Source: an uncultured Gemmatimonadaceae bacterium (lineage in GTDB: Bacteria; Gemmatimonadota; Gemmatimonadetes; Gemmatimonadales; Gemmatimonadaceae). Taken from it: a stretch of 64,000 bases of DNA. The DNA is taken from NCBI GenBank assembly GCA_963829055.1, contig CAWHHI010000016.1:576001-640000 (forward strand), written 5' to 3'. Shown piece after piece: positions 30,733-56,035 of the stretch (position 1 is the first letter of the stretch; every line of letters begins with the position of its first letter). Made by a program: the position numbers and the translations under genes. The notes beneath the pieces are model-generated. The model was not told the DNA's origin. It worked only from the letters and a program-made list of their open reading frames with translations, and searched no databases.

Positions 30733-33695
<2,963 letters not shown>

Positions 33696-33940
33696 AAAAA
33701 AACACGTCAAGCAGAGCACGCGCGATCTACTAGCGCGGTGTCCGTGGTCCGGGCACCGCACTTCAACGAGTGAACGGTTTCGATCGCTGGCGAGACCAGA
33801 GGCCTGCCATCGATCGCGAAACTGTGTCACGTGTGTTGATTCATCGATCGCCTCACGCATCCGACGCTCTCAGCGACCCACCGAAGTGGATCGAGACAGT
33901 GTCGCTGCGTGGGCTATCCCACGATCACTACTTCCATCCG

Positions 33941-33953
33941 TTGTCAAACAGCA
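33941..33953 (-). promoter_or_regulatory. boxA-like antitermination site in the ITS
   Basis: TGCTGTTTGACAA on the minus strand; similar AGCTGTTTGATAA at ~35835-35847 in the 16S leader. Confidence 0.6.
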
Positions 33954-34130
33954 AATACGAAAGCAAAAACGAAGCTCGATAAGACAGCTATGCGCGCGAC
34001 CATAATGCGCCGCGCGCACAGCGTATGAGAAATCAAGATTGAGATCGGGTGTACGAAGCGAGCGACTAACATTGAGCGCTTTCGAACGATACACCGACTT
34101 GCGTCAGGTCCGTTCTACTCACAGCTCCGT

Positions 34131-35675
<1,545 letters not shown>

Positions 35676-35874
35676 AGAAGAATTCAATGCTCATAGCTCT
35701 TCGAACTGCTGTCGCGCTGTTCGCGACAGCGCGTCCGAATCACTTTAGAATGATCAGGTCTGAACTCTCCCCGAAGCCCTGATCGGCTCCGGATCAACGA
35801 GTTCGCCTCGCACACTCTGCGATCTCAATCTCGATTATCAAACAGCTCTAATGTCGAATGAACGACAGCCTATC

Positions 35875-37173: not shown

Positions 37174-37201
37174 ATTCGTACCGTAAAATGTTGTGTGCTA
37201 A

Positions 37202-37274
37202 TGCACTCGGAAGGAGTCGAACCTTCAACCTACAGATTAAGAGTCTGCTGCTCTGCCAGTTGAGCTACGAGTGC
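37202..37274 (-). tRNA. tRNA-Lys(CTT), CCA not encoded
   Basis: GCACTCGTAGCTCAACTGGCAGAGCAGCAGACT-CTT-AATCTG...GGTTCGACTCC...GAGTGCA. Confidence 0.95.
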
Positions 37275-37382
37275 AAAATAACTTTCGCGAAAGCCACGTG
37301 CCGTTCGTGACCGAAGTGCCTAACGCCAGCCGTGCGCCATCGCTTCACACCAGAGGTACCCGTCACGCCAAACATCAACAGG

Positions 37383-37459
37383 TGGCGCGCCAGGAGGGAC
37401 TCGAACCCCCGACCCACAGCTTAGAAGGCTGTCGCTCTATCCACCTGAGCTACTGGCGC
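37383..37459 (-). tRNA. tRNA-Arg(TCT)
   Basis: GCGCCAGTAGCTCAGGTGGATAGAGCGACAGCCT-TCT-AAGCTG...TTCGAGTCC...GCGCGCCA. Confidence 0.95.
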
Positions 37460-37499
37460 AATGGCCGAACCGACGCTCTCGAATGCCGAGCGCCACAAA

Positions 37500-37573
37500 T
37501 CGGGGCGCCCGGATTTGAACCGGGGACCTCCTGCTCCCAAAGCAGGCGCGATACCAGGCTACGCTACGCCCCG
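37500..37573 (-). tRNA. tRNA-Pro(TGG), CCA not encoded
   Basis: CGGGGCGTAGCGTAGCCTGGTATCGCGCCTGCTT-TGG-GAGCAGG...TTCAAATCC...CCCCGA. Confidence 0.95.
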
Positions 37574-40888: not shown

Positions 40889-42985
40889 TGGATGACAATG
40901 CTCAGGATGCGATCGCCCTGCACGATAGAATCGAGGACGTTCAACCCTCGAGTGACGCGACCGAACACCGTGTAGTGGCCGTCGAGGTGTGGCTGAGGCG
41001 AGTGCGTAAGGAAGTACTGACTGCCGCCTGTATCCGGTCCAGACAGCGCCATGCCCACTGCCCCTCGCTCGTACCATTGCCGGTTGAGCTCATCGCGAAT
41101 CGCGTACCCTGGCCCGCCGCTACCGTCGCCCCTTGGGTCGCCGTCCTGGGCAACGAAGTTCGGCACGACGCGATGGAACGCGAGGCCGTCGTAATATCGG
41201 TGTCGCGCGAGCGTGATGAAGTTGCCCACCGTCAGCGGCGCGTCGGCGCCAGCGAACTCAATGTCGATCATTCCACGCTCGGTTGTGATGCGCGCTCGAG
41301 GTGGGCGGCGGAGGAGTGACGGTACCAGAATCGTTCGCACGCGGCCCAGGTAGTACGCGGTTGATTGCGCGGGAATTTCAGCGCCGGACCACGAGATGAA
41401 GGGACCGACGCGCCGAACAGCGTTGCGCTCGACCGGGTCAGCAGAAGGAGCGAGCGACGCGATGGAATCGCGCAAGGCGCCGAACGATGCGCTGTCGGTC
41501 GCCCAGGCCGCGGCAATGACTCCTAGGGCCGCGACTCTGGCGTCGTTTTCCGGATCCGTTGCCGCACGACGCCAGGCGGCGAGGGCCACGATTGCGTCAG
41601 ACGCTCTCGCGCGATCCCGCAGCGCGTTGAGAATCGAGGCGCGGACGAAGAGGTCGTCATCGTGAAGCCACCCTGGCAATGCGGCGCGGGCGTACGGGCG
41701 TGTCGCGGCACTGGCAGAATCGGTCCACGCCGGAGGCCGACTGGAACGCGGCGGCGCGCACCCGCGCGTCGGAATCGCGAAACAACGGTGCGGCAATGGC
41801 ATCGACCGCCGCCTGACCGCCGACGCCCGCCGCTTCCGCGGCGGCGGCTCGGAAATGCCAATCGGCGCGTCGCTGCCACGCTTCGGCACCGGCCGTATCG
41901 AGCGCGGGCATTCGGGCGCCCGCGCGAACGGCGGTCGACAACAGCGCGCGACGGAACGTGAACCCCGTGTCCGCCGCCCAGGCTGCGGACCAGTCAGGGG
42001 ACGGGACAGCGAGCACGCCGCCTAACGACTGTGCGACCGCGACGCGTGCATTGCCATCCGGGTCAGTGAGGTGTCGCACAAGGTCCGCGCGCGCTCTTGG
42101 ACCATACGTCGACAACGACCGGATCGCGTTAATGCGCACGTGCGCGTGGGGATCCTCCACGAGACGCCGCAACGCGGCACGGGCATCGTCGCCAAGCGAG
42201 TCGCCGGCGACCGTTCGACCGAGCCCCCTAGCGACGTAGGCGCGCAGATCGACTTCCACGTCCGAGCGATCAGGGCTCGTGTGTGTCGGCGACGCGGACG
42301 GGCGCCGTTCGAGTGCGAGGAGTGCACTCACCGACCCGGGAACCCTCGATCGGGTCAGCGCGTACGCAGCGCTCCGCTGTACACGTAGGTCGGCATGGTC
42401 GAGATATGGCACGATCAATCCCGCCGGCACTGGTCGAAGCTTCGCGGCTGCCTGCAGCACGTCTGCGAGCGACGTGGCGGGGCGGCCTTCCTTTAGCGAG
42501 GTTTCGAGGGTCGGACGCGCGACTTCACCGAGCTCGCCCAGCGACCAGGCGGCCGCCGATGCGACGGTGTGCGCAGCACCAAGGCTTGCGGCCAGCACGT
42601 TGGTCGCCGAGCTATCGTGCAGAAGGCCTAACGCGAAAGCGGCGTCGGCGGCGATCGTCGAGTCTGTATTGGCGACGAGAGATCTCACGATAGCCGCGCG
42701 GCTAGAAATGCCTACCTGTCCGATGACCCGCACGGCGTACGCCCGCACGAACGTTGTCGGTGATGCGAGGGCGCGGTCGACGACAGCGGTGTCGGGCCGT
42801 CTCGTATCAGCGACTCGCAGCAGGGATGCCAGGTGCTCGATATCTACCGCAGTGAACGGACTGTCGATAACCAACGGCGCCGCCGCGTCAGTGGGCTGCG
42901 GACGCGGCGCGCACGCAGCCGCAACCAGTACCGTGACCAACCCGAGGGCGACGCGCCACGAACGGCGGTCAGGAACGAACAACAC
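40885..42985 (-). CDS. Lipoprotein with HEAT repeats and a C-terminal cyclophilin-type PPIase; frameshift ~41735
   Basis: Lipobox AAAC, HEAT repeats, APLTVGNF, FHRVVPNFVAQDGDP, GSQYFLT, PHLDGHYTVFG. Confidence 0.85.
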
Positions 42986-43397
42986 CGCGCTCCATGAGGG
43001 CGCGAACGTCAGCGGGGATCGGAACCGGTTTCCCGTCTGGATTGAGTGACACGAGCAGCGTTCTGGCTGATGCGAGGCGTTCTTCCGTGTCAGCGTTGCG
43101 GATGAGGTAATCGAACGTGATCGCCCGCGACCGCACATCGACCAGACGCGTCTCCACACGCACGAGGTCATCGTAGCGCGCAGGCGCGTGATAGCGAATG
43201 TTCGCTTCGGCAACGGCGAGCGCGGTTCCCTGGCGCTCCAGCTCGGAATACGGCAGGCCGAGGGCACGAATGAAGTCCGTGCGCCCCACTTCGCACCAGA
43301 CGAGATACTCGGCGTGGTACACTACACCCATCTGATCGGTTTCGGAGTATCTCACCCGAAACTCGCTGATATGCGGCCTGACGTTCGGCGGTGTCAC
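42969..43397 (-). CDS. YbgC/FadM-family acyl-CoA thioesterase
   Basis: RVRYSETDQMGVVYHAEYLVWCEVGRT, YHAPARYDD; GTGA overlap with the pduL stop. Confidence 0.9.
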   Translation of the reverse strand: MTPPNVRPHISEFRVRYSETDQMGVVYHAEYLVWCEVGRTDFIRALGLPYSELERQGTALAVAEANIRYHAPARYDDLVRVETRLVDVRSRAITFDYLIRNADTEERLASARTLLVSLNPDGKPVPIPADVRALMERGVVRS

Positions 43398-44461
43398 CGG
43401 TCCAGTATGCCTAACGCAGCGGCACGGTCGCGAGCACTCGGGGTGAGCAGCGCATCGGCCGGTACGCGACCGCCGGTGCGGGCGAGTCGGATAACGTCGC
43501 GCTCCGTCACGAGCGGACGTTTTCGTTGAGTCGCCGAACGCCAGGCGATGATGCTCGCCGTATCGCCAGTCCTGACCCCGGCCGCACGCGCTTCGTCGAC
43601 ATCGAGGTGCAGCTCGCTCGCGTGGCCTTCGCCGGAGCGGACCAGCACCGTCATGGAACGTGGCGGCTCGCGCCCCGTCGCCGCATCGGACGTCCACCTC
43701 GGCGCCATTGGCCAAGCCCCAACGGTGCGCGTCGGTCGGGGCGCAGATGCAGGTGACGGGCGGCGATGATGACGCCGCGACGCAGGTCGACGCGTCCGGC
43801 TGGACCAACCAGCGTCACTCCACCCACCGAGGTGTCGAGGGAGCCGCTGGCGGCGACGGGCGCCTCGATGCCCAACAATCCGGCGTCGGATAGCGCGATT
43901 TCTAGCTGAGTGTCGCTTCGTGCCGGACCGACGACGCGCACGGCCTGTAGCTTCCCGTTGGGCCCCTCAATGTCGAGCGACTGGGTGGCGGCGAACTGGC
44001 CCGGCTGCGTCAACTCCCGCGCGACGGTCAATGGGGTTCCGCCGAACAGGGTCTGCACGTCGGCCCGCGACAGGTGCACGTGTCGGTTGGATACGCCGAT
44101 GCGCACGTCGATCGACGGGGCGTCGCAGCACGCGTTCGCGTTAGGCGTGCCTCGGCACCACGGGCGGTTGCGCTCAGGCGGCGGGCCTTTGCCGGCGGCG
44201 GCCGCCCGCGTCACACGCGTCAGCTCGCGGTGGACGTCCGAAAACGCGGACCGTCTCGTGACGCGCGACGGAGCGACGCCAGCCAGATCCTGTGCCGCAC
44301 CCGACCAGACTGGCGGGGTACCACCCCGTTCCGGCGGCGCGGGGCGCACGGGTGACGGTAACCATGTGGCTGCCCGTTCACCGGACGTACGCGTTGCCCA
44401 CCTGTTCGAGGAGTGCGCGAGCGATCAGCTCCGCCAGCCGGTCCAGCTCTGCGTCCGTCAC
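43394..44461 (-). CDS. pduL: PduL-type phosphate acyltransferase with N-terminal encapsulation peptide and C-terminal extension; apparent frameshifts ~44390, ~43745, ~43650
   Basis: IGVSNRHVHLS, LTQPGQFAA, VRVVGPAR, QLEIA, GVIIAARHLHL, ELHLDVDEA; GTG 44461 gives MTDAELDRLAELIARALLEQ. Confidence 0.88.
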
Positions 44462-45980
44462 CGGCGAGACGCTCGGAAGTCGGAGAGGAACTGGTCGACT
44501 ATTCGTTGGACATCGCCGGCGGGAAGTGATGCGGTGCGCGAGGCGGTGCCGCTATCTGCATTCGAATGCGACGGCTCGCCGAAGTCGACCGCACGTTTGC
44601 GCCGCCGGACGCTTCGCGCAGCGGGTCTACGTACGGCCGAATCTCTTCGCCCAGCCGCTTGATGTTTATCAGGTGAAGCGGCGTCACGTTGTCGGAGGTG
44701 ATGCTGCCGCCCCATGAGCCGGGTCCGAGCGTCATCGCCGGAGCGAAGCCGGTCGTGTAGCCCACTGCTCCGATCGCGACGTTCGAGTTCACGATGATGC
44801 GGAACGCCGGCTTCTCGGAGAAGAATCGGTCGATGACGTGCTGGTCCTGGCTGTGGATACCTAACGAGTGACCAAGGCCTCCGTACTCGAGCAACTCGAT
44901 CGCGCGCTCACAGCAGCGTTCCCAGCCGTCCTCGACGAAGAACCCCAGGACCGGGCACAGCTTCTCACGACTCAGCGGATCCTCGCGACCGACGTTCGCC
45001 AGATCCACGATCATCAGTTTCGCGTCTGGCGCGATAGCGAAGCCGGCCTTTCGCGCGATCTCCTGCGGCTGCTTACCAACGACGTCGGGATTGATGCCTT
45101 TGCCGCTCGGCGGAATCATCAGACGTTCCAGTGCGCGCTTCTCGTCCGCGTACAGAAGTGTGCCCGCTCGCGTTTGAATACGTCGCGCACTGCGCGCTCG
45201 ACGGGCGCATCGCAGACGACCGAGTTCTCCGCGGAGCAAAGCACGCCCGCGTCGAACGTCTTCCCGTCGACGACGTCTGCAACAGCCTTCTCGATTCGCG
45301 CCGTTCGCTCAATGATTGCAGGCACGTTTCCGGGTCCGACGCCGTACGCGGGCTTCCCTGCCGCGTACACCGCGCGCACCATGTCGGAACCGCCCGTGGC
45401 GAGAATGACCGCCGTGAGCTTGTGGCGCATCAAGGCGTTCGTCCCGTCCATGGTAGCCACGGTCATCGCGTTGACGAGCCCCGCCGGTGCGCCGGCGCCT
45501 AACGCAGCCGCTTCGAGAAGCCGAGCTGTCTCGACGACGCTCCTCGTCGCGCGCGGGTGCGGCGACATCACGATCGAGTTCCGCGCCTTCACCGAGATCA
45601 TTGCTTTGTAGATCGCGGTCGACGTCGGGTTCGTTGTGGGGATGATCGCTGCAACGACACCCATGGGGACGGCGAGCTCGCGGACCCTTCGCGTTCGGTC
45701 TTCGCGCAACACGCCGACGGTCTGCATCGGGCAGGATGTAGTCGAGCAGAAAGTCGGACGCGAAGCGATTCTTGATGACCTTGTGCTCGTAGACGCCCAT
45801 CCCGGTCTCGTCGACCGCCAGTCGCGCGAGTCGCTCGGCGTTCGACGACGCGGCAGCAGCCATCGCGCGAACCACGGCATCGACCTGACGTTGATCCGCC
45901 GTCGCGAACCGTCGCTGGGCGTCGGAGGCCGGCGCGACGAGGTCGCGCGCCTCCTGAACGCTCCGAAGGTCGGCGTCCAC
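44458..45980 (-). CDS. Acylating aldehyde dehydrogenase (EutE/PduP-like); apparent frameshifts ~45730, ~45165, ~44600
   Basis: DLRSVQEARDL, ETGMG, IPTTNPTST, SPHPRA, LATGG, GVGPGN, FDAGVLCSAE (catalytic Cys), EKLCPVL, GHSLGIHS, TLGPG. Confidence 0.9.
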
Positions 45981-45990
45981 GACTACTCGC

Positions 45991-46467
45991 TCAGGCGTTC
46001 AGCGACCGAAACGCGGCGAGCAGCTCGTCTCGGCCGGCACGCGCGACGTCACGGCCCTTGATCGGAAAGTTGTCCAGGCGGCGCGCCATTGCGCGGAGAT
46101 CGACGACGCGCGCGTTCTCGAGCGTCGCGACATCGATGCGGCCACCCTGCATGGGAACGGTGGCGGTCGGCTCGTCGTTGTCGTTCACCGCAACCGTCAT
46201 CTCCGGGTGCGGACGCGGGATGACGTGCGAGGAAATGAGATGACCGACCCGTTCGGCAGCGGACGACCCCGCGTCGACAGCCGCTTTCACCGCCGCGACT
46301 TCGCCGACGAACTTCACGGTCACGAGACCGGCGTCCGCCTTTTCGGTACCCAGCAGCCGGACGTCCGCCGCCTTGAGGCCAGCGTCAGCGGCTTCGATCG
46401 CGCCGACGAGCCCACGCGTCTCGATGAGGCCGAGCGCGCCGTAGGCCCAAGGATCAACCGGCGTCAC
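45991..46467 (-). CDS. BMC-H shell protein with C-terminal extension
   Basis: [26 protein letters not shown]...[10 protein letters not shown]...HVIPRPH plus a ~60 aa tail. Confidence 0.92.
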
Positions 46468-46747
46468 CCGAGGGACCTTGGGGAAGGAGTGCTTCGAGCT
46501 CCGCGTGCGGACGCGGGATGACATGAACCGACACGAGCTCGCCAACGCGCTCCGCCGCCGCGGCACCGGCATCAGTCGCCGCTTTCACGGCGCCAACGTC
46601 GCCTCGCACCATTACTGTCACGTAGCCTCCACCGACCTTCTCTTTTCCAACGAGCCTGACGTTGGCCGCCTTGACCATCGCGTCGGCTGCCTCGATAGCG
46701 CCGACGAGTCCCTTCGTCTCGATCAGGCCAAGTGCGTTCTGTGCCAT
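46454..46747 (-). CDS. BMC-H shell protein (EutM/PduA-like, 97 aa)
   Basis: [26 protein letters not shown]...[23 protein letters not shown]...HVIPRPH; GGAGG SD. Confidence 0.95.
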
Positions 46748-46815: not shown

Positions 46816-46866
46816 ATAATGTGTGCTCCCGTTCGGTTTGTAAAGATCGCGGCGTCGAAGTAGACT
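46816..46866. promoter_or_regulatory. Candidate divergent overlapping promoters (BMC operon and lpxH-like gene)
   Basis: Minus: TTTACA(46844-46839)-17-CATTAT(46821-46816). Plus: TTGTAA(46838-46843)-17-TAGACT(46861-46866). Confidence 0.5.
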
Positions 46867-46872
46867 GTCCCC

Positions 46873-47661
46873 GTGCTCCCGTCGCCGTGCTACGTCTTCT
46901 CCGACACACACCTCGGCGCTACGTCCACCGAGGTCGAACAGCGGTTGCTCGCGTTTCTCCGGCATCTACCCGGGAGAGCGCGATCCGTCGTCATCAACGG
47001 CGATCTGTTCGAGTTCTGGTTCGAGTGGCGGTCGGTGATTCCGCGCGCGTCGTTCCGCGTGTTGGCGGCGCTGGCTGATCTCGTCGACGCGCAAATTCCC
47101 GTGTTGTGGGTCGCCGGGAATCACGACTGCTGGGGCGGCGAGGTCCTGCGCGACGACGTGGGAGTCACCTACCACGTCGGACCGTGGACGGGACAGCTCG
47201 CTGGTTGGAACAGCCGCATCGAGCACGGCGACGGTCTGCGTCAGGTCGAGGATCGGAAGTATCGGAGACTGCGCACGGTGTTGCGGCATCCCGCTTCCAT
47301 CTGGGCGTTCCGCCATCTCCTGCATCCCGACTTCGGGAGCCGGCTTGCCGCAGGGTCGTCGCACGCCAGTCGGACTTATCAGGCGCGCGACGGCGGCCGC
47401 GGGCTACGCGACGTGGCGATGAAGGAACTTGCTAGCAGCCCCGCGACGGAACTTCTCATCTACGGTCACTCGCACGTCGCTGCTCTGGAGCGCGCGCCGT
47501 CTGGCGGTGTCTACGCCAATGCTGGCTCGTGGATGAGCAGGCCCACGTTTCTACGTGTCGATACGCAACGCGTGGCACTCATGGAATGGAGCGGATCAGC
47601 CGAGGGTGAGTGTCTCGACGCACTCGATCGCCGAGCCGAGGAAGCGCTGACCAAGGCGTAG
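46873..47661 (+). CDS. lpxH: UDP-2,3-diacylglucosamine diphosphatase (LpxH-like metallophosphoesterase)
   Basis: [32 protein letters not shown]. Confidence 0.8.
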
Positions 47662-49101: not shown

Positions 49102-49198
49102 TGGCGGGAGCGTGTGGGAATCGAACCCACCCAACCCGACGGCGTCGGGTCGCATCAGTTTTGAAGACTGAGGAGACCACCAGACCCCAGCCGCCCCC
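49102..49198 (-). tRNA. selC: tRNA-Sec (TCA)
   Basis: 97 nt; anticodon loop CT-TCA-AA, long variable arm GACCCGAC/GTCGGGTT, GGTTCGATTCC, 3' GCCA. Confidence 0.93.
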
Positions 49199-49203
49199 TC
49201 GCG

Positions 49204-50241
49204 TCACCCAAGCACAATCGCGGTCTCACCTTTCGGCAGCACCTCTCCGACCTCAGCGGCACGCGGGACGCGTGCAAGATAGTCAGCCACGCGCGACGAG
49301 GGCACCGCCACGAGCAGCCCGCCCGACGTCTGAGGGTCGGTCAGCAGCGCACGGTCGGCCTCGCTCGCGACGCCCCACGTTACGAGCGGCTGCACGTAAT
49401 CGAGGTTTCTGCTCCCGCCGCCGGGTCGTGACCCACCGAGCCATGCCTCCCGCGCACCAGGGATGACCGGCACGTCGTGAACGCGGATGTAGAGCGTGAC
49501 GTCACTTGCGCGGGCAATGTGCGACGCGTGGCCGAGTAGCCCAAATCCCGTAATGTCGGTGGCGCAGCGGGAGCCAACGTCGAGAGCAACGCGACTGGGC
49601 TCCGCGTTCAACTCGCGCATGAGCGTGATCATCGCCAGCGTCGTGGCGGGGTCGAGCGTCCCTTTCTTCAACGATGTGGCCAGGATGCCGTTGCCTAACG
49701 GCTTCGTGAGGACGAGACGGTCGCCGGGCCGCGCACCCGCGTTGGTCAGCATCGTCCGCGGGTCAATGCGGCCGGTGACGGCGAGCCCGAACTTGATCTC
49801 GTCATCGACGACGGTGTGTCCGCCGATCACGTGCGCGCCTGCTTCGTGGACCTTGTCCTGTCCTCCGCGCAGGATCTCCGTGAGAACCTCGATGGGCAGT
49901 TGGCCGGTCGGGAACGCGGCGATGTTCAGGACGGTCAGCGGCGTCCCACCCATGGCGTAGATGTCCGACAGCGCATTCGCCGCGGCGACCTGCCCGAACT
50001 CGTATGGGTCGTCGACGATAGGCGCGAAGAAGTCGACCGTCTGCACGATCGCGACGTCGTCGGACACGCGAAAGACCCCCGCGTCGTCGAACGTTTCATG
50101 ACCGACGAGAATGCGCGGATCCGACTTTCGCGCGAGCGGCGCGAGCGCGTGAGACAGGTCGCCCGGACCCATCTTCGACGCTCAGCCAGCGCAGCGAGAG
50201 AAATGCGTTAGGCGAAAGATCTCAGAGCGAGAATGGGACAT
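49204..50241 (-). CDS. selD: Selenophosphate synthetase containing selenocysteine (UGA at codon 20)
   Basis: ATG 50241 gives MSHSRSEIFRLTHFSRCAG-UGA-ASKMGPG, in frame with DDAGVF, QTVDFF, ANALSDIYAMGG, DITGFGLLGH, DPQTSGGLL. Confidence 0.93.
50152..50174 (-). promoter_or_regulatory. Candidate bacterial SECIS hairpin
   Basis: AGATGGGTC-CGGGC-GACCTGTCT, starting about 8 nt after the UGA at 50184-50182. Confidence 0.65.
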
Positions 50242-50735: not shown

Positions 50736-52413
50736 CTAGTCCAGCCCGACGATCGAGCCGTCGGGGCGAATGGCCATTCGCTCGGCCGCGGGCTCCTTGG
50801 GGAGCCCCGGCATGGTCATGATGTCGCCAGCCTGCGCGACAACGAAACCCGCGCCTGCAGCGGGGTACACCTCGTTCACCGTAATGCGGAAGCCGCGCGG
50901 CCGACCCAGCTTCGTCGGGTCGTCGGTCAGCGAATACTGCGTCTTCGCCATGCACACTGGCGTGTTGCCGAGACCAATGGACTCGAGATACTGGATGGAG
51001 CGGTCCGCTTTCGGGGCGTAATCGGCGCCGTCACCGCCATACACCTTCCGCACGATGGTGTCGATCTTGTCCCGAATGGGTGCGTCCGCGGAATAGATGG
51101 GCGCGAAATGGCTGCCTCCTTCACCGAGCACCGCCATGACCTCACGTGCGAGCTCGACACCGCCCTCGCCTCCTTTTTCCCACACCTCGTTCAGCGCCAC
51201 GCGCGCGCCCGTACGCTCCGCACATTCCGCGACCATCTGCAGCTCGCGATCGGTGTCGCCGGTGAATCGGTTGACGCCCACGACGACGGGGACGCCGAAT
51301 TGCCTAACGTTCTCGATGTGTCGCTCGAGATTTGGCAGCCCGCGCTCGAGCGCGCCGAGGTCCTCCGTCTTGAGCGCGTTCTTGCCGGCGCCGCCATTAA
51401 GCTTGAGCGCGCGGACGGTTGCCACGAGCACCGCGGCCTTGGGATCCAGACCGCCGAAGCGGCACTTGATGTCGAAGAACTTCTCGGCGCCGAGGTCGGA
51501 ACCGAAGCCGGCTTCGGTTACGACGACGTCTGATAGGGACAGCGCCGATCGCGTTGCGAGCACGCTGTTGCAGCCGTGCGCGATGTTGCCGAACGGCCCA
51601 GCGTGCACGAAGGCGGGACCGCCTTCCAGCGTCTGCACGAGGTTCGGCCGGATCGCATCCTTGAGCAGCATTGCCATCGCGCCGGACGCCTTGAGATCCG
51701 CTGCCCGCACCGGGCGCCGATTCGAACCAGCCGTGGACCCGACGATGATTCGACCGAGGCGCTGTTCGAGATCGGCGGCACTCGTGGCGAGCGCGACGAT
51801 CGCCATCACCTCACTCGCGGGAATGATCACCCACCGCTCTTCGCGCGCCACTCCGTTGGCGACGCCGCCGAGTCCGATGACACAATCGCGCAGCGCGCGG
51901 TCGTTCATGTCGATGGTACGCGGCCACGTGATGCGACGCGAATCGATGCCGAGCGCGTTGCCGTGGTGCAGATGGTTATCGAGCATCGCGGCGAGCAACG
52001 CGTGCGCAGTGGAAATGGCGTGGAAGTCGCCGGTGAAATGGAGATTGATATCCTCCATTGGCAACACCTGCGCGTAACCGCCACCGGCCGCGCCGCCCTT
52101 CATGCCGAACACCGGCCCGAGGCTCGGCTCACGGATGCATAACGTTGCATTCTGCCCTATACGCCGCAGCGCCTTGCGTCATTCCAACCGCGGTCGTCGT
52201 CTTCCCTTCACCTGCGACCGTCGGGTTGATACCAGTCACGAGAACGAGCTTGCCGCGCGCAGGACGCTCGGCGACATCGAGCGCGATCTTCGCCTTGTAC
52301 TTCCCGTAGAGATCCAGGTCATCGGCGCCGAGTCCGAGCTCGGCGGCAACGTCGACGATCGGCCGCAATGTCGCTTGCTGTGCGATCTCGATGTCGGACG
52401 GTACGTTCCCCAC
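50736..52413 (-). CDS. fhs: Formate--tetrahydrofolate ligase; frameshifts ~52130-52175
   Basis: [73 protein letters not shown]. Confidence 0.94.
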
Positions 52414-53344: not shown

Positions 53345-54377
53345 TCAGCGCGTGGCGGCGCCTTCGGTCGGACGAGGACGAGGCGTGCGCTCACCGGCTG
53401 GTAACTCGGCGGTGCGGGATGCGCGCACGGTGGCCTTACCGCTCGCCTTGTCGGAGGAGACGGAGCGCGGCCATTTGTGCTCGATCCACAGCAGCAACGG
53501 CGACGCGACATAGATCGAGCTGAACGTCGCGACGAAGATGCCGAACGCCATGACGATGGCGAACGGCTGGATCACTTCGCCCGCGAAGAAGAGAAGCGCG
53601 AGCGTCGCGGCGAGGGTCGTCGCGTGCGTCAGCACCGAACGCGGCAGCGTCTCGTTGATGGATCGGTTCAGCACGTCGTAGAGCGGCGACTTCCGATCCT
53701 TCTTCAAGTTCTCACGGACGCGATCGAAGATGATGATCGTGTCGTTGCCGGAGTAGCCAAGCAGAGTGAGGATAGCCGCGACGATCGTGAGTGATACCTC
53801 GATGTGCAGCAACTTGATGAACGCCAGCGTCACGAGGACGTCGTGCGCTGTCGACAACACGGCCGCGACGCCGAACCGCCATTCGAATCGTATGGCCAGA
53901 TAGACGAGCGTCACGAGCGACGCGAGCAACATTGCGATGCCAGCGTTTCGACTCAACTCGGCGCCGACGCGTGGCCCGACCGCTTCGGTGCGAACGACGC
54001 GGTAGGCGTTCGCGCCGAACTCCTTCGTCAGCGCGTCCTGCACGCGCTGGGCGACGCTTTCCGCTCCGCTCGCCTGTTGCGCGACGTCGCGCCGATCCTG
54101 CGCGCGCACGGTGAACTCGCTGTCCGAACCGAACTGCTGGATCTCCGCGCCGCGTGACGCCGGCGCGGTCCAGCGTGGAGCGGATGCGGCCCGCGTCAGC
54201 AGCCTTCGTGAACTGCAGCTGCATGAGTGTGCCGCCAGTGAACTCGATGCTGTAGTTCACGCCACCACGAATGGCGAAGCTAGCGAGCCCGGCGAGGATG
54301 AAGGCCGCGGTGACGCCGGCCGCCCAGCGCCACCACTTGATGAAATCGAAATTCGTGTCGTGTAGGATGCGTAGCAT
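53345..54377 (-). CDS. secF: Protein translocase subunit SecF; frameshift ~54150
   Basis: SIEFTGG, VGPRVG, RFEW, HDV, GYSGNDTIIIFDRVRE. Confidence 0.93.
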
Positions 54378-56035
54378 TAGATGCTCAGAGTCTGGGCGCC
54401 ACGCGAGCGGCTGAGCCACAGGAGATAGAACGTGCGAACGACGAAGATCGCCGTGAACAAGGACGCCGTGATGCCAGCGATCAGCGTGACCGCGAAGCCC
54501 TGGACCGGCCCGGTGCCGTACTGATAGAGCACGGCCGCGGTGAGGATGGTCGTGACACTGGTATCGATGATCGCAGTCAGCGCGTGCCGGAAGCCTTCAT
54601 CGATCGCCGTGCGTACCGTCTTGCCTCGTGCGAGCTCCTCTCGGATCCGCTCGAAGATCAGCACGTTCGCGTCCACCGCGATACCGACCGACAGCACGAA
54701 TCCAGCGAGGCCCGGCAGCGTGAGGACGGCGTTGAAATACGCCAGCATGGCCGCCGTGTAGAGGATGTACAGGCCTAACGCGATGACCGAGAGCACACCC
54801 GAGAAGCGGTAATAGACGACCATAATCGCGACCACGAGCAGCATCGCGATGACAAGCGCGCGGACGCCGTTCCGGATCGAGTCCTGACCAAGGCTCGCCC
54901 CGATGTTGCGCACCTCGGCGACCTTGAGTGGAACCGGGAGTGCGCCCGCGCGCAACACGAGCGCGAGGTCCTGCGCTTCCTGCAACGAGCGACCCTGACC
55001 CATCGTGATCTGACCGCGCGTGCCGATCGCGCTCTGGATGACAGGCGGGCGACCCATCACGCGCTGGTCGAGCACGATCGCCATGTAATCGCGAATGTGC
55101 TTGGCGGTTTCGGCGCGGAAGCGGCGTCCGCCTTCGTTGTTCAGTGTGAACTCGACGACCGTTCCCTCGAGCGGCACCTGGTTCGGCTTGGCGCCAACGA
55201 GGTATTCGCCGGTGATGATCGGCCGCGAGTCGAGCAGATAGATTGGCCGATACTGCGTGGCGCCGAGCGTCTGTGTCTCACCGCCCCAGCGCAGCACCTT
55301 ACCCGGCGGAATGGCCGACTGAATCGCCGGCATGTCCAGGTAGCGCTGCAGCGTCGGGACATCGCTCTCGGCTACAAAGTACTCGCCCGGAAACTGGCCC
55401 TGCTGGATCAGCTTCGAGAACGCGCCGCCCGTCGTCAGCGCGAGCGAGTCTTTCTTCGTCGAGTCGCCCTTCGTCTTACCAGCCGAGTCCTTCCCCGGCG
55501 TGAACAGCTCCTGAAGTCCCTTCCCGCTCTTCGCGGTGTCGCCGCCCACGACAGCCGGGCCGGCTGCGGCGCCAGCCTCCTTTAGAATCGCGTCGAACCG
55601 GGGCAGCGCCTTCTCCAGCGCCTGCGTTTCGTCGGTGATCTGGAACTCGAGGAACGCGCTCTTCTGGACAACGCCCATGGCGCGCTGCGGATCATCGATG
55701 CCGGGCAGCTCGACGATGATCTGGTTATCGCCGCTCTTCTGCACGACCGGCTCGGCGACGCCGAACTCGTCGATGCGTGTGCGGACGACCTTGATCGCAC
55801 GGTCGAGCGCCTCCGCCTTGTCGGCAATGGTGCCCTTCGACTCATCGATCTCGAGCGCGAGGTGCATGCCGCCTTGCAGATCCAACCCACGTTTGAGCGG
55901 AACCCGGGTAACGGTATCGAATACGTAGCTGTCACCGCGTTTGACTCGCTCAACGACCTTGCGCGGGAACAGCGACCATACGGACGCTGCCACGAGCGCT
56001 ACGATGAGCAGCACGCGGTACTTCAGGTTGGACAT
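54377..56035 (-). CDS. secD: Protein translocase subunit SecD
   Basis: [39 protein letters not shown]. Confidence 0.96.

Follow-up and report, generated by a model that had tools for sequence, protein, structure and literature searches.

A four-gene cluster in a Gemmatimonadaceae genome fits the hexamer and core-enzyme part of a split FRAG8 metabolosome, likely for deoxyribose-5-phosphate breakdown

The window, a 64,000-nt stretch of DNA from an uncultured Gemmatimonadaceae bacterium, carries four bacterial microcompartment (BMC) genes on the minus strand within 43394..46747. We confirm the four identities given in the first-pass annotation: a BMC-H, an extended BMC-H, an acylating aldehyde dehydrogenase (AldDH) and PduL. 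The features of the cluster and its flanks are as follows.

42969..43397, minus strand: YbgC/FadM-family acyl-CoA thioesterase, downstream of PduL (TIGR00051 above cut-off)
43394..44461, minus strand: PduL phosphotransacylase with an N-terminal encapsulation-peptide-like helix and a C-terminal module (PF06130, E 5e-44)
43397..43522, minus strand: 42-aa EutQ-like module at the PduL C-terminus (alignment with the RpiB module; hhalign to EutQ)
about 44458..45980, minus strand: acylating AldDH, type I, with a C-terminal encapsulation-peptide-like helix (similarity to an intact relative)
45991..46467, minus strand: BMC-H with a C-terminal tail of ~70 aa, 158 aa in all (PF00936, E 7e-27)
46454..46747, minus strand: BMC-H, standard hexamer, 97 aa (PF00936, E 1e-30; NCBIfam EutM above cut-off)
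46816..46844, minus strand: promoter-like site in the gap of 125 nt upstream of BMC-H (1 found versus 0.6 expected)
46873..47661, plus strand: housekeeping gene that we take, from its motifs, to be metallophosphoesterase-like; divergent flank, outside the system (motif-based label)

The two BMC-H genes overlap by 14 nt, and GTGA overlaps join the AldDH stop to the PduL start and the PduL stop to the thioesterase start. The promoter-like site is by itself not above chance; its -35-like hexamer is kept in the upstream sequences of three close relatives (L013-L015). The housekeeping setting described earlier also holds, with the divergent metallophosphoesterase and murI on one side and the acyl-CoA thioesterase on the other. 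The closest named loci belong to Gemmatimonas, Gemmatimonadaceae and Gemmatimonadota MAGs (86-92% identity, same flanks), and the 97-aa BMC-H is 88-98% identical to its counterparts in the loci of relatives. The last 50 aa of the 158-aa BMC-H form a conserved helical domain (alignment of 23 rows; AlphaFold pLDDT 92). All top 10 Foldseek rows for the tail are Rho (best E 0.93, TM 0.66) and Pfam Rho_N matches 3 of 23 members (best E 0.11), which suggests a weak resemblance of these 50 aa to the Rho N-terminal domain.

Single-base frameshifts, to which the first-pass annotation did not refer, break both AldDH (near 45729, 45148 and 44576 in this assembly) and PduL (several sites), while the genes of relatives are intact. 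The AldDH pieces are 83-90% identical to the intact 506-aa protein of a relative and retain an intact motif that presumably holds the catalytic Cys; the best NCBIfam model of the intact relative is TIGR02518, at 570 bits against a cut-off of 620. The C-terminal amphipathic helix of AldDH (about 44461-44514) is conserved in relatives. In the AldDH tree the enzyme groups with C-terminal-encapsulation-peptide (EP) enzymes, separate from type II, and it shares an unresolved fork with a group of ACI-like architecture (44-48% identical, with no labelled ACI sequence among them). The PduL pieces in the window contain the His motifs, and the intact protein of relatives has 355 aa and matches PDB 5cuo (E 1e-51).

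The genome-wide search for satellite genes proposed in the first-pass annotation found three PF03319 (BMC-P) genes, deoC, rpiB, a class II aldolase and ackA. Exactly three BMC-P genes are present in the genome and all lie outside the window, which bears out their reported absence there; the window likewise has no deoC, class II aldolase or Fe-ADH, in line with the earlier lack of an aldolase and an alcohol dehydrogenase. Parts of the system lie at four sites on contigs C16 and C12. One tandem on C12 consists of two BMC-P genes directly upstream of deoC, and a tandem on C16 consists of deoB, cdd and the third BMC-P. The DeoC (DERA) on C12 has an EP-like N-terminus, so that amphipathic terminal helices are seen on AldDH, PduL and DeoC; it scores above the TIGR00126 cut-off and can be aligned to DERAs of known structure across the catalytic Asp and Lys motifs. 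The RpiB on C12 carries the EutQ-like module at its N-terminus and no EP helix. Its DGAG motif, shared with its orthologues, places Asp at Cys66, the change known from SPU-type enzymes, and in a tree that included 22 Cys-type rows the Asp-type RpiBs and the RpiBs of contiguous SPU loci form one branch (SH-aLRT 98). A pyrimidine-nucleoside phosphorylase is also present, and the class II aldolase lies in the pyr operon at C16:679177.

The searches described next covered a genome that is 86% complete. PF00936 searches of it up to E 10 revealed no BMC-T and only two matches above cut-off, both BMC-H, and blastp with BMC-Tdp and BMC-Ts queries from contiguous SPU loci returned just these two proteins. 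EutB, EutC, EutL, EutS, EutJ, EutQ, EutP and EutT gave no blastp match in the genome at 1e-4, and searches of the genome found neither a glycyl-radical enzyme nor a linked alcohol dehydrogenase. Several candidate parts were rejected: a second deoC (C10) has no shell link, a second rpiB (C4, Glu type) has no shell link and no visible module, an Fe-ADH on C20 has no terminal peptide, and the class II aldolase also occurs in genomes without a shell. Profiles of the three peptides, which are insensitive at such short length, matched nothing more in the genome.

We examined 120 other genomes of the family; across the family the four-gene cluster is stable as a unit. Exactly three BMC-P genes occur in 28 of them, and the remaining 92 have neither shell genes nor PduL. 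BMC-H (26 genomes), PduL (24) and the AldDH orthologue (27) are found among these 28 only, and 25 of the 26 BMC-H-bearing relatives have two PF00936 matches. BMC-H, AldDH, PduL and a second copy of the EutQ-like module occur together in 23 of the 28; this second copy, which sits on RpiB in every checkable case, is present in 26/28 shell-bearing versus 2/92 shell-less genomes. The lone BMC-P lies behind deoB-cdd in all 28 genomes, and deoC lies beside BMC-P in 27, of which 26 are placed by coordinates and one (G045) is cut by a contig end; in G050 it is on a separate contig. Shell-less relatives have nothing in the slots, and the genes on either side lie next to each other (4/4 and 5/5); a search of five shell-less genomes found the thioesterase in four, and the metallophosphoesterase gene directly adjoins it in all four. 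Because deoB (102/120 genomes) and deoC relatives (76/120) are both common in shell-less genomes, the pathway can do without the organelle, and the deoB-cdd neighbourhood counts for less than it might seem to. In shell-less genomes deoC keeps the same site, sometimes with an N-terminal helix. A Cys/His tail of DeoC is present in shell-bearing genomes and largely missing from five shell-less orthologues.

Judged by sequence, the four-gene cluster is not a new compartment but fits the already catalogued FRAG8 type, of which it would encode the hexamers and the core enzymes. FRAG8 comprises seven fragmented loci, mostly from Gemmatimonadetes (Sutter et al., 2021, PMC8217296, Supplementary Data 1 and 2), with an AldDh that bears a C-terminal EP and is closest to the ACI enzyme, PF01791 in nearly every locus, PF02502 in some, and a BMC-P triplet; the standard BMC-H is joined in some by a BMC-H with a C-terminal extension of about 50 aa (PMC8217296). 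The system described here shares the Gemmatimonadetes host, the scattered sites, the type I AldDh with a C-terminal EP, the deoC (PF01791) behind two BMC-P and the BMC-P triplet. In the FRAG8 member Gemmatimonadetes SCN 70-22, the neighbouring tags ABS52_17750 and ABS52_17745 are BMC-H proteins of 97 and 158 aa, the same two lengths as in the window, and this member also has a separate BMC-P pair. However, the published text makes no mention of PTAC, of the deoB-cdd site of the third pentamer, of the EutQ-like module or of the Asp-type RpiB, and it assigns no reaction; some members also have BMC-T, which was not found here. Our literature search found no experiment on any FRAG8 organelle.

The SPU metabolosomes (subtypes 1-7; Axen et al., 2014, PMC4207490; Dwyer et al., 2024, PMC11585597) have the same DERA with an N-terminal extension and catalytic Asp/Lys/Lys, the Cys66-to-Asp RPI, the AldDH, the BMC-P triplet and, in some subtypes, PTAC. 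DERA activity and a DERA-RPI complex have been shown experimentally for SPU6 (PMC11585597). In contrast to the four sites found here, SPU loci are mostly contiguous, and every subtype is said to have BMC-Ts, of which we found none. The EP of their AldDH is N-terminal in all subtypes but SPU6, a subtype restricted to Chloroflexi, whereas here the EP is C-terminal and the host is a member of Gemmatimonadota, with an RpiB that bears the module but no EP helix. Three further types of Sutter et al. (2021) resemble the system in having split loci or no obvious signature enzyme. HO and ACI also have BMC-P triplets, but HO combines one BMC-H, three BMC-T and an AldDh with an N-terminal EP, and ACI, confined to Acidobacteria, encodes a class II aldolase with an EP in its main locus. 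Gemmatimonadetes also harbour MUF2, which includes AldDh and PTAC, but this type has BMC-Ts and a PF00596 class II aldolase beside BMC-H. The gene content found here differs from all three.

The first-pass annotation had left a choice between one part of a split locus, as in HO- or SPU-type BMCs, and something undescribed, either a stripped-down compartment or an uncapped scaffold, whose substrate would be unknown. The split locus stands, with FRAG8 and not HO as its type. The other option falls by the test that the annotation itself had set, a satellite with pentamers and a signature enzyme of a described type: there are three BMC-P genes, an EP-like DeoC beside two of them, an SPU-type RpiB and the FRAG8 match. 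Its notion of a minimal system survives for the shell, in which two BMC-H and three BMC-P but no BMC-T were found, and for the lack of a linked alcohol dehydrogenase, but not for the pentamers and the aldolase, which exist elsewhere in the genome.

We consider it likely that the system is a split metabolosome, with hexamers and the aldehyde core encoded here and the pentamer, DeoC and RpiB genes at three other fixed sites, and that it sequesters acetaldehyde derived from deoxyribose-5-phosphate. By analogy with SPU metabolosomes, it likely converts deoxyribose-5-phosphate to acetaldehyde, acetyl-CoA and acetyl-phosphate. Cytosolic Cdd, pyrimidine-nucleoside phosphorylase and DeoB would supply the deoxyribose-5-phosphate, AldDH would produce acetyl-CoA and NADH, PduL would recycle CoA and release acetyl-phosphate, and cytosolic AckA would use the latter to form ATP. 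Two BMC-H and three BMC-P would close the shell without trimers, the encapsulation peptides would aggregate the core, and the EutQ-like module, carried by PduL and RpiB, would anchor it to the shell, with RpiB probably a non-catalytic partner of DERA. Because no linked alcohol dehydrogenase was found, the model does not cover NAD+ regeneration. In addition, the AldDH is a type I enzyme that shares only about 31% identity with the AldDHs of contiguous SPU loci in the same phylum, so that acetaldehyde is its presumed rather than proven substrate.

Alternatively, a split metabolosome could receive its aldehyde from another source or from a mixture of sources, such as the class II aldolase of the pyr operon, which would cleave a deoxyhexose phosphate to lactaldehyde and leave deoC a bystander. 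Acylating AldDHs can accept several aldehydes, and this aldolase family is used by the PVM, ACI and MUF2 types. We regard this as unlikely, since the aldolase at C16:679177 has no terminal peptide and occurs in 80 of the 120 genomes irrespective of shell genes, whereas deoC keeps its place beside the pentamers in 27 of 28 genomes and the Cys/His tail of DeoC is largely missing from the five shell-less orthologues; the own genome also yielded no EutBC or glycyl-radical enzyme as a source.

The frameshifts raise the question of whether the system, though genuine in the family, is being lost from this strain, with AldDH and PduL as true pseudogenes. At least 10 coding indel sites fall in about 2.1 kb of AldDH and PduL, compared to 5 in the neighbouring 10.2 kb (stricter likeness cut-off), and sister lineages such as G115 and G003 have lost the whole system. 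However, the contigs of near-identical strains from four studies do not have the listed indels, nor those that break fhs and secF, and the tested AldDH and PduL pieces keep their motifs with no in-frame stops. One 1,755-nt piece has 21 substitutions and 8 gaps, a higher share of gaps than natural decay would be expected to leave. A background check by tblastn covered four regions of the genome, and heavy frameshifting also affects genes near the satellite rpiB. The frameshifts are thus probably assembly errors, and decay is very improbable. That the four genes alone form an uncapped or substrate-less scaffold is barely credible and is refuted at the level of gene content, because each of the 26 family genomes that carry the BMC-H pair has three BMC-P as well, and BMC-H occurs without BMC-P in none of the sampled genomes, even though the unit is stable across the family and has its own upstream gap.

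Only two strong copies of the 42-aa module exist in the genome, those of PduL and RpiB, and the module aligns to residues 2-44 of E. coli EutQ (hhalign probability 87.9, E 3.3e-6). This is the region of the N-terminal helices H1/H2 reported to bind the shell in Salmonella and E. coli (Yang et al., 2025, PMC12487888). In EutQ, however, the region is fused to a cupin rather than to PduL or RpiB, and EutQ requires EutM and EutL, whereas no EutL-like protein was found in the own genome. The module matched no solved structure, the Atlas gave a lead only (0.84, with PF15953 on 12% of members), and the longer carriers among the best 120 of 257 protein database matches are just PduL-type proteins. Two features may be new: the constant arrangement over four sites, and the presence on both PduL and RpiB of a module similar to the shell-binding N-terminus of EutQ. 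More tentatively, and with rather less confidence than an even chance would give, these elements may be read jointly as a DNA-sugar organelle without trimers or alcohol dehydrogenase, whose genes occupy four constant positions among housekeeping genes in roughly a quarter of the sampled Gemmatimonadaceae-family genomes. In this joint reading PduL would link shell to cargo, with an encapsulation peptide at one end and an EutQ-H1/H2-like docking module at the other, and the same module would also lie within the so-called "unstructured linker" of the RPIs of SPU loci and behind the EP of ACI-like AldDHs; it would therefore be a general second targeting signal of metabolosomes.

If the module binds shells, it would explain cargo attachment in several metabolosome types that have no EutQ, PduB or CsoS2, and it would be an engineering handle. 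The system also offers a five-protein shell without trimers. FRAG8 gains a concrete, testable function in deoxyribose-5-phosphate breakdown, a gain of modest value, and is far commoner in this family of soil and rhizosphere bacteria than one would expect from the seven published loci.

The first-pass annotation described a four-gene bacterial microcompartment (BMC) locus in the window, and the locus is real, with its genes tightly packed or overlapping on one strand and a G+C content similar to that of the surrounding DNA:

46747-46454, minus strand, BMC-H, 97 aa
46467-45991, minus strand, BMC-H with tail, 158 aa
about 45980-44458, minus strand, aldehyde dehydrogenase (AldDH)
44461-43394, minus strand, PduL

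The BMC-H tail is predicted to form a small helical domain (pLDDT 92), for which the Rho N-terminal domain is the best, though weak, match. The nearest named loci, from Gemmatimonas, Gemmatimonadaceae and Gemmatimonadota MAGs, show gene order and flanks identical to the window's, and their AldDH (506 aa) and PduL (355 aa) are both intact. Elsewhere in the window lie an rRNA-operon-like stretch (32700-35800, judged from ORF translations), tRNA-Lys, -Arg and -Pro (37201-37573), and tRNA-SeC beside a selD-like gene, labelled from its translation (49102-50172).

Single-base indels interrupt AldDH and PduL in the window, at 10 or more sites (at least 10 among those listed). The 10 listed coding sites are absent from the contigs of near-identical strains in four studies, which argues against decay of these genes in this strain, and in the adjoining 10.2 kb, 5 further sites carry indels that contigs of four runs, chosen by a stricter likeness cut-off, do not show. 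The frameshifts are likely assembly errors. Decay keeps a small probability because indel density in the BMC enzymes is several times that of the adjacent 10.2 kb, and because no sequencing run could be identified as the window's source (best share of words 0.56). Among those 5 sites are single-base indels that interrupt an fhs-like gene (50736-52413) and a secF-like gene (53345-54419) and do not occur in the near-identical contigs.

The annotation reported no vertex protein or signature enzyme, which holds for the window (C16:576001-640000) but not for the genome (7.78 Mb, 20 contigs, completeness 85.9%, contamination 3.95%). The whole-genome search that it proposed found deoC, rpiB, class II aldolase, ackA and three PF03319 (BMC-P) genes (C16:797367, C12:233305 and C12:233655, on contigs C16 and C12), bearing out its split-locus option; this 85.9% complete genome yielded no BMC-T, no EutBC and no glycyl-radical enzyme. 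The C12 BMC-P pair is flanked by a rhomboid-like gene on one side and deoC on the other, and this DeoC, in which an amphipathic helix followed by a linker forms the N-terminus, exceeds the TIGR00126 cut-off and can be aligned to solved deoxyribose-phosphate aldolases (DERAs). The C16 BMC-P overlaps the cdd stop, downstream of deoB. One of the two rpiB genes (C12:140764) encodes an N-terminal 42-aa EutQ-like module that also occurs at the C-terminus of PduL, and the catalytic Cys of this RpiB is replaced by Asp, a change reported by Dwyer et al. 2024 (PMC11585597) for all SPU RPIs. AckA and pyrimidine-nucleoside phosphorylase are encoded elsewhere in the genome. No peptide is seen on its Fe-ADH or on its class II aldolase, which is present in 80/120 family genomes; the aldolase gene (C16:679177-679836, L239) ends a pyrR-pyrB-pyrC-like run.

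The DeoC beside BMC-P ends in a Cys/His tail (L007:8829-8960 from C12; L106-L119), with Cys224, His242 and Cys246 invariant in 15 rows, and the tail is largely absent from five shell-less orthologues (L121-L125). The tail may be a metal site linked with the organelle. A second, divergent deoC (C10:159322-163084) stands immediately before a gene for a long aldehyde dehydrogenase, with no shell gene there, and the two may break down this sugar in the cytosol.

We examined 120 other family genomes of at least 85% completeness; as the sampled kin are not independent, the counts are patterns rather than statistics. Exactly three BMC-P genes occur in 28 genomes, and within these fall all genomes with BMC-H (26), PduL (24) and an AldDH orthologue at least 73% identical (27); one genome outside the 28 has an AldDH homologue at 35%. 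A second module copy is found in 26/28 shell-bearing versus 2/92 other genomes, and sits on RpiB wherever sequence or position could be checked (one copy is at a contig end). The two outside carriers, G032 (L152) and G083 (L153), have an RpiB with a degenerate active site, and no shell gene was found in them. All five markers occur jointly in 23/28, several gaps falling at contig ends. These tallies include the unpublished G007, without which 27/119 have pentamers and 22 all five markers. The order BMC-H, BMC-H, AldDH, PduL is kept in all 20 main loci fetched (of 26), BMC-P adjoins deoC in 27/28 genomes, and deoB-cdd precedes a lone BMC-P in 28/28. In shell-less relatives the corresponding slots are empty: metallophosphoesterase adjoins thioesterase in 4/4 (five searched, one without a thioesterase match), and in 5/5 nothing separates cdd from the gene downstream. 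In shell-less genomes (L121-L125) rhomboid-deoC is still found at this site but lacks the BMC-P pair, and the N-terminal DeoC helix is kept in G115 (L121) and two others.

The window's system fits FRAG8, a known but uncharacterised BMC type, of which we take it to be a new member. Compared by description and protein lengths, the two share host phylum, scattered sites, an AldDH with a C-terminal peptide, a linked PF01791 aldolase, a BMC-P triplet and both kinds of BMC-H, and with the missing parts present in the genome, the annotation's other option, an undescribed compartment, is set aside. As described in sections of Sutter et al. 2021 (PMC8217296), FRAG8 comprises 7 loci, mostly from Gemmatimonadetes, with an AldDH near ACI bearing a C-terminal encapsulation peptide (EP), PF01791 in almost all loci and PF02502 in two, and a shell of a BMC-P triplet and standard BMC-H, plus a 50-aa-tailed BMC-H in two loci; in Gemmatimonadetes SCN 70-22 the two BMC-H, of 97 and 158 aa, have adjacent locus tags, and a BMC-P pair is listed apart from them. 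The system probably resembles SPU (Axen 2014, PMC4207490; Dwyer 2024) in mode of action, but differs in that no BMC-Ts was found and in the position of the AldDH peptide, and is therefore filed as FRAG8 rather than an SPU subtype. We found no paper on FRAG8 function in the open-access literature.

The module matches residues 2-44 of E. coli EutQ (prob 87.9, E 3.3e-6; E 0.0014 in a second comparison), for which Yang et al. 2025 (PMC12487888) report shell binding by helices H1/H2 (residues 9-41). Run against the 3,702 open frames in 20 loci, the module profile gave 12 matches, all BMC cargo; RpiBs from contiguous SPU loci account for 6 and AldDHs of ACI-like architecture for the other 6, at independent E 3e-5 to 5e-3. 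In metagenome loci L208-L223, BMC-H lies beside an AldDH with an EP near its C-terminus and then the module, which fits the published ACI description. The idea is partly anticipated, because Sutter et al. noted EutQ-like homology both for an extension in MIC2 and for a small protein of SPU6; no paper on the module in PduL or RPI was found in the open-access literature, and its presence on both proteins, as read from sequence, may be new.

Beyond the family, BMC-P occurs in 21/200 other phylum genomes (6/12 families). The split layout recurs as rhomboid, P, P, deoC in three fetched loci and P, P, deoC in two more, and the one such site fetched shows deoB, cdd, P. Seven fetched loci are contiguous and SPU-type (rpiB, deoC, BMC-H, BMC-P, AldDH, further BMC-P), with an AldDH about 31% identical to the window's and, in both loci read gene by gene, interspersed probable BMC-T genes. 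Contiguous loci L246-L252, from two other Gemmatimonadota families, encode an RpiB with an EP and then the EutQ-like module. The proposed AldDH tree, built quickly, places the window's group (SH-aLRT 100) among C-terminal-EP enzymes, away from contiguous-SPU enzymes and EutE, with the fork from the ACI-like group not settled. In the RpiB tree, built equally quickly, split and contiguous systems share a single Asp-type branch (SH-aLRT 98), and the 22 Cys-type and 9 Glu-type rows lie outside it.

Gene content, linkage and motifs, all directly observed, underlie the mechanism that we propose. Cdd, pyrimidine-nucleoside phosphorylase and DeoB would yield deoxyribose-5-phosphate, which encapsulated DERA would cleave, giving glyceraldehyde-3-phosphate plus acetaldehyde; AldDH would convert the latter to acetyl-CoA, and PduL, whose structure and EP are described in part of PMC4784909, would recycle CoA and make acetyl-phosphate for AckA. 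The module on PduL and RpiB may bind the shell, and RpiB may form a complex with DERA. An identical route is proposed in a preprint (PMC12747264) for archaeal SPU-like compartments. In the family, deoB is present in 102/120 genomes and deoC relatives in 76/120, and thus the pathway exists without a shell. Because the genus of G115 also contains shell-bearing members, the system appears to have been lost at several sites in the G115 lineage.
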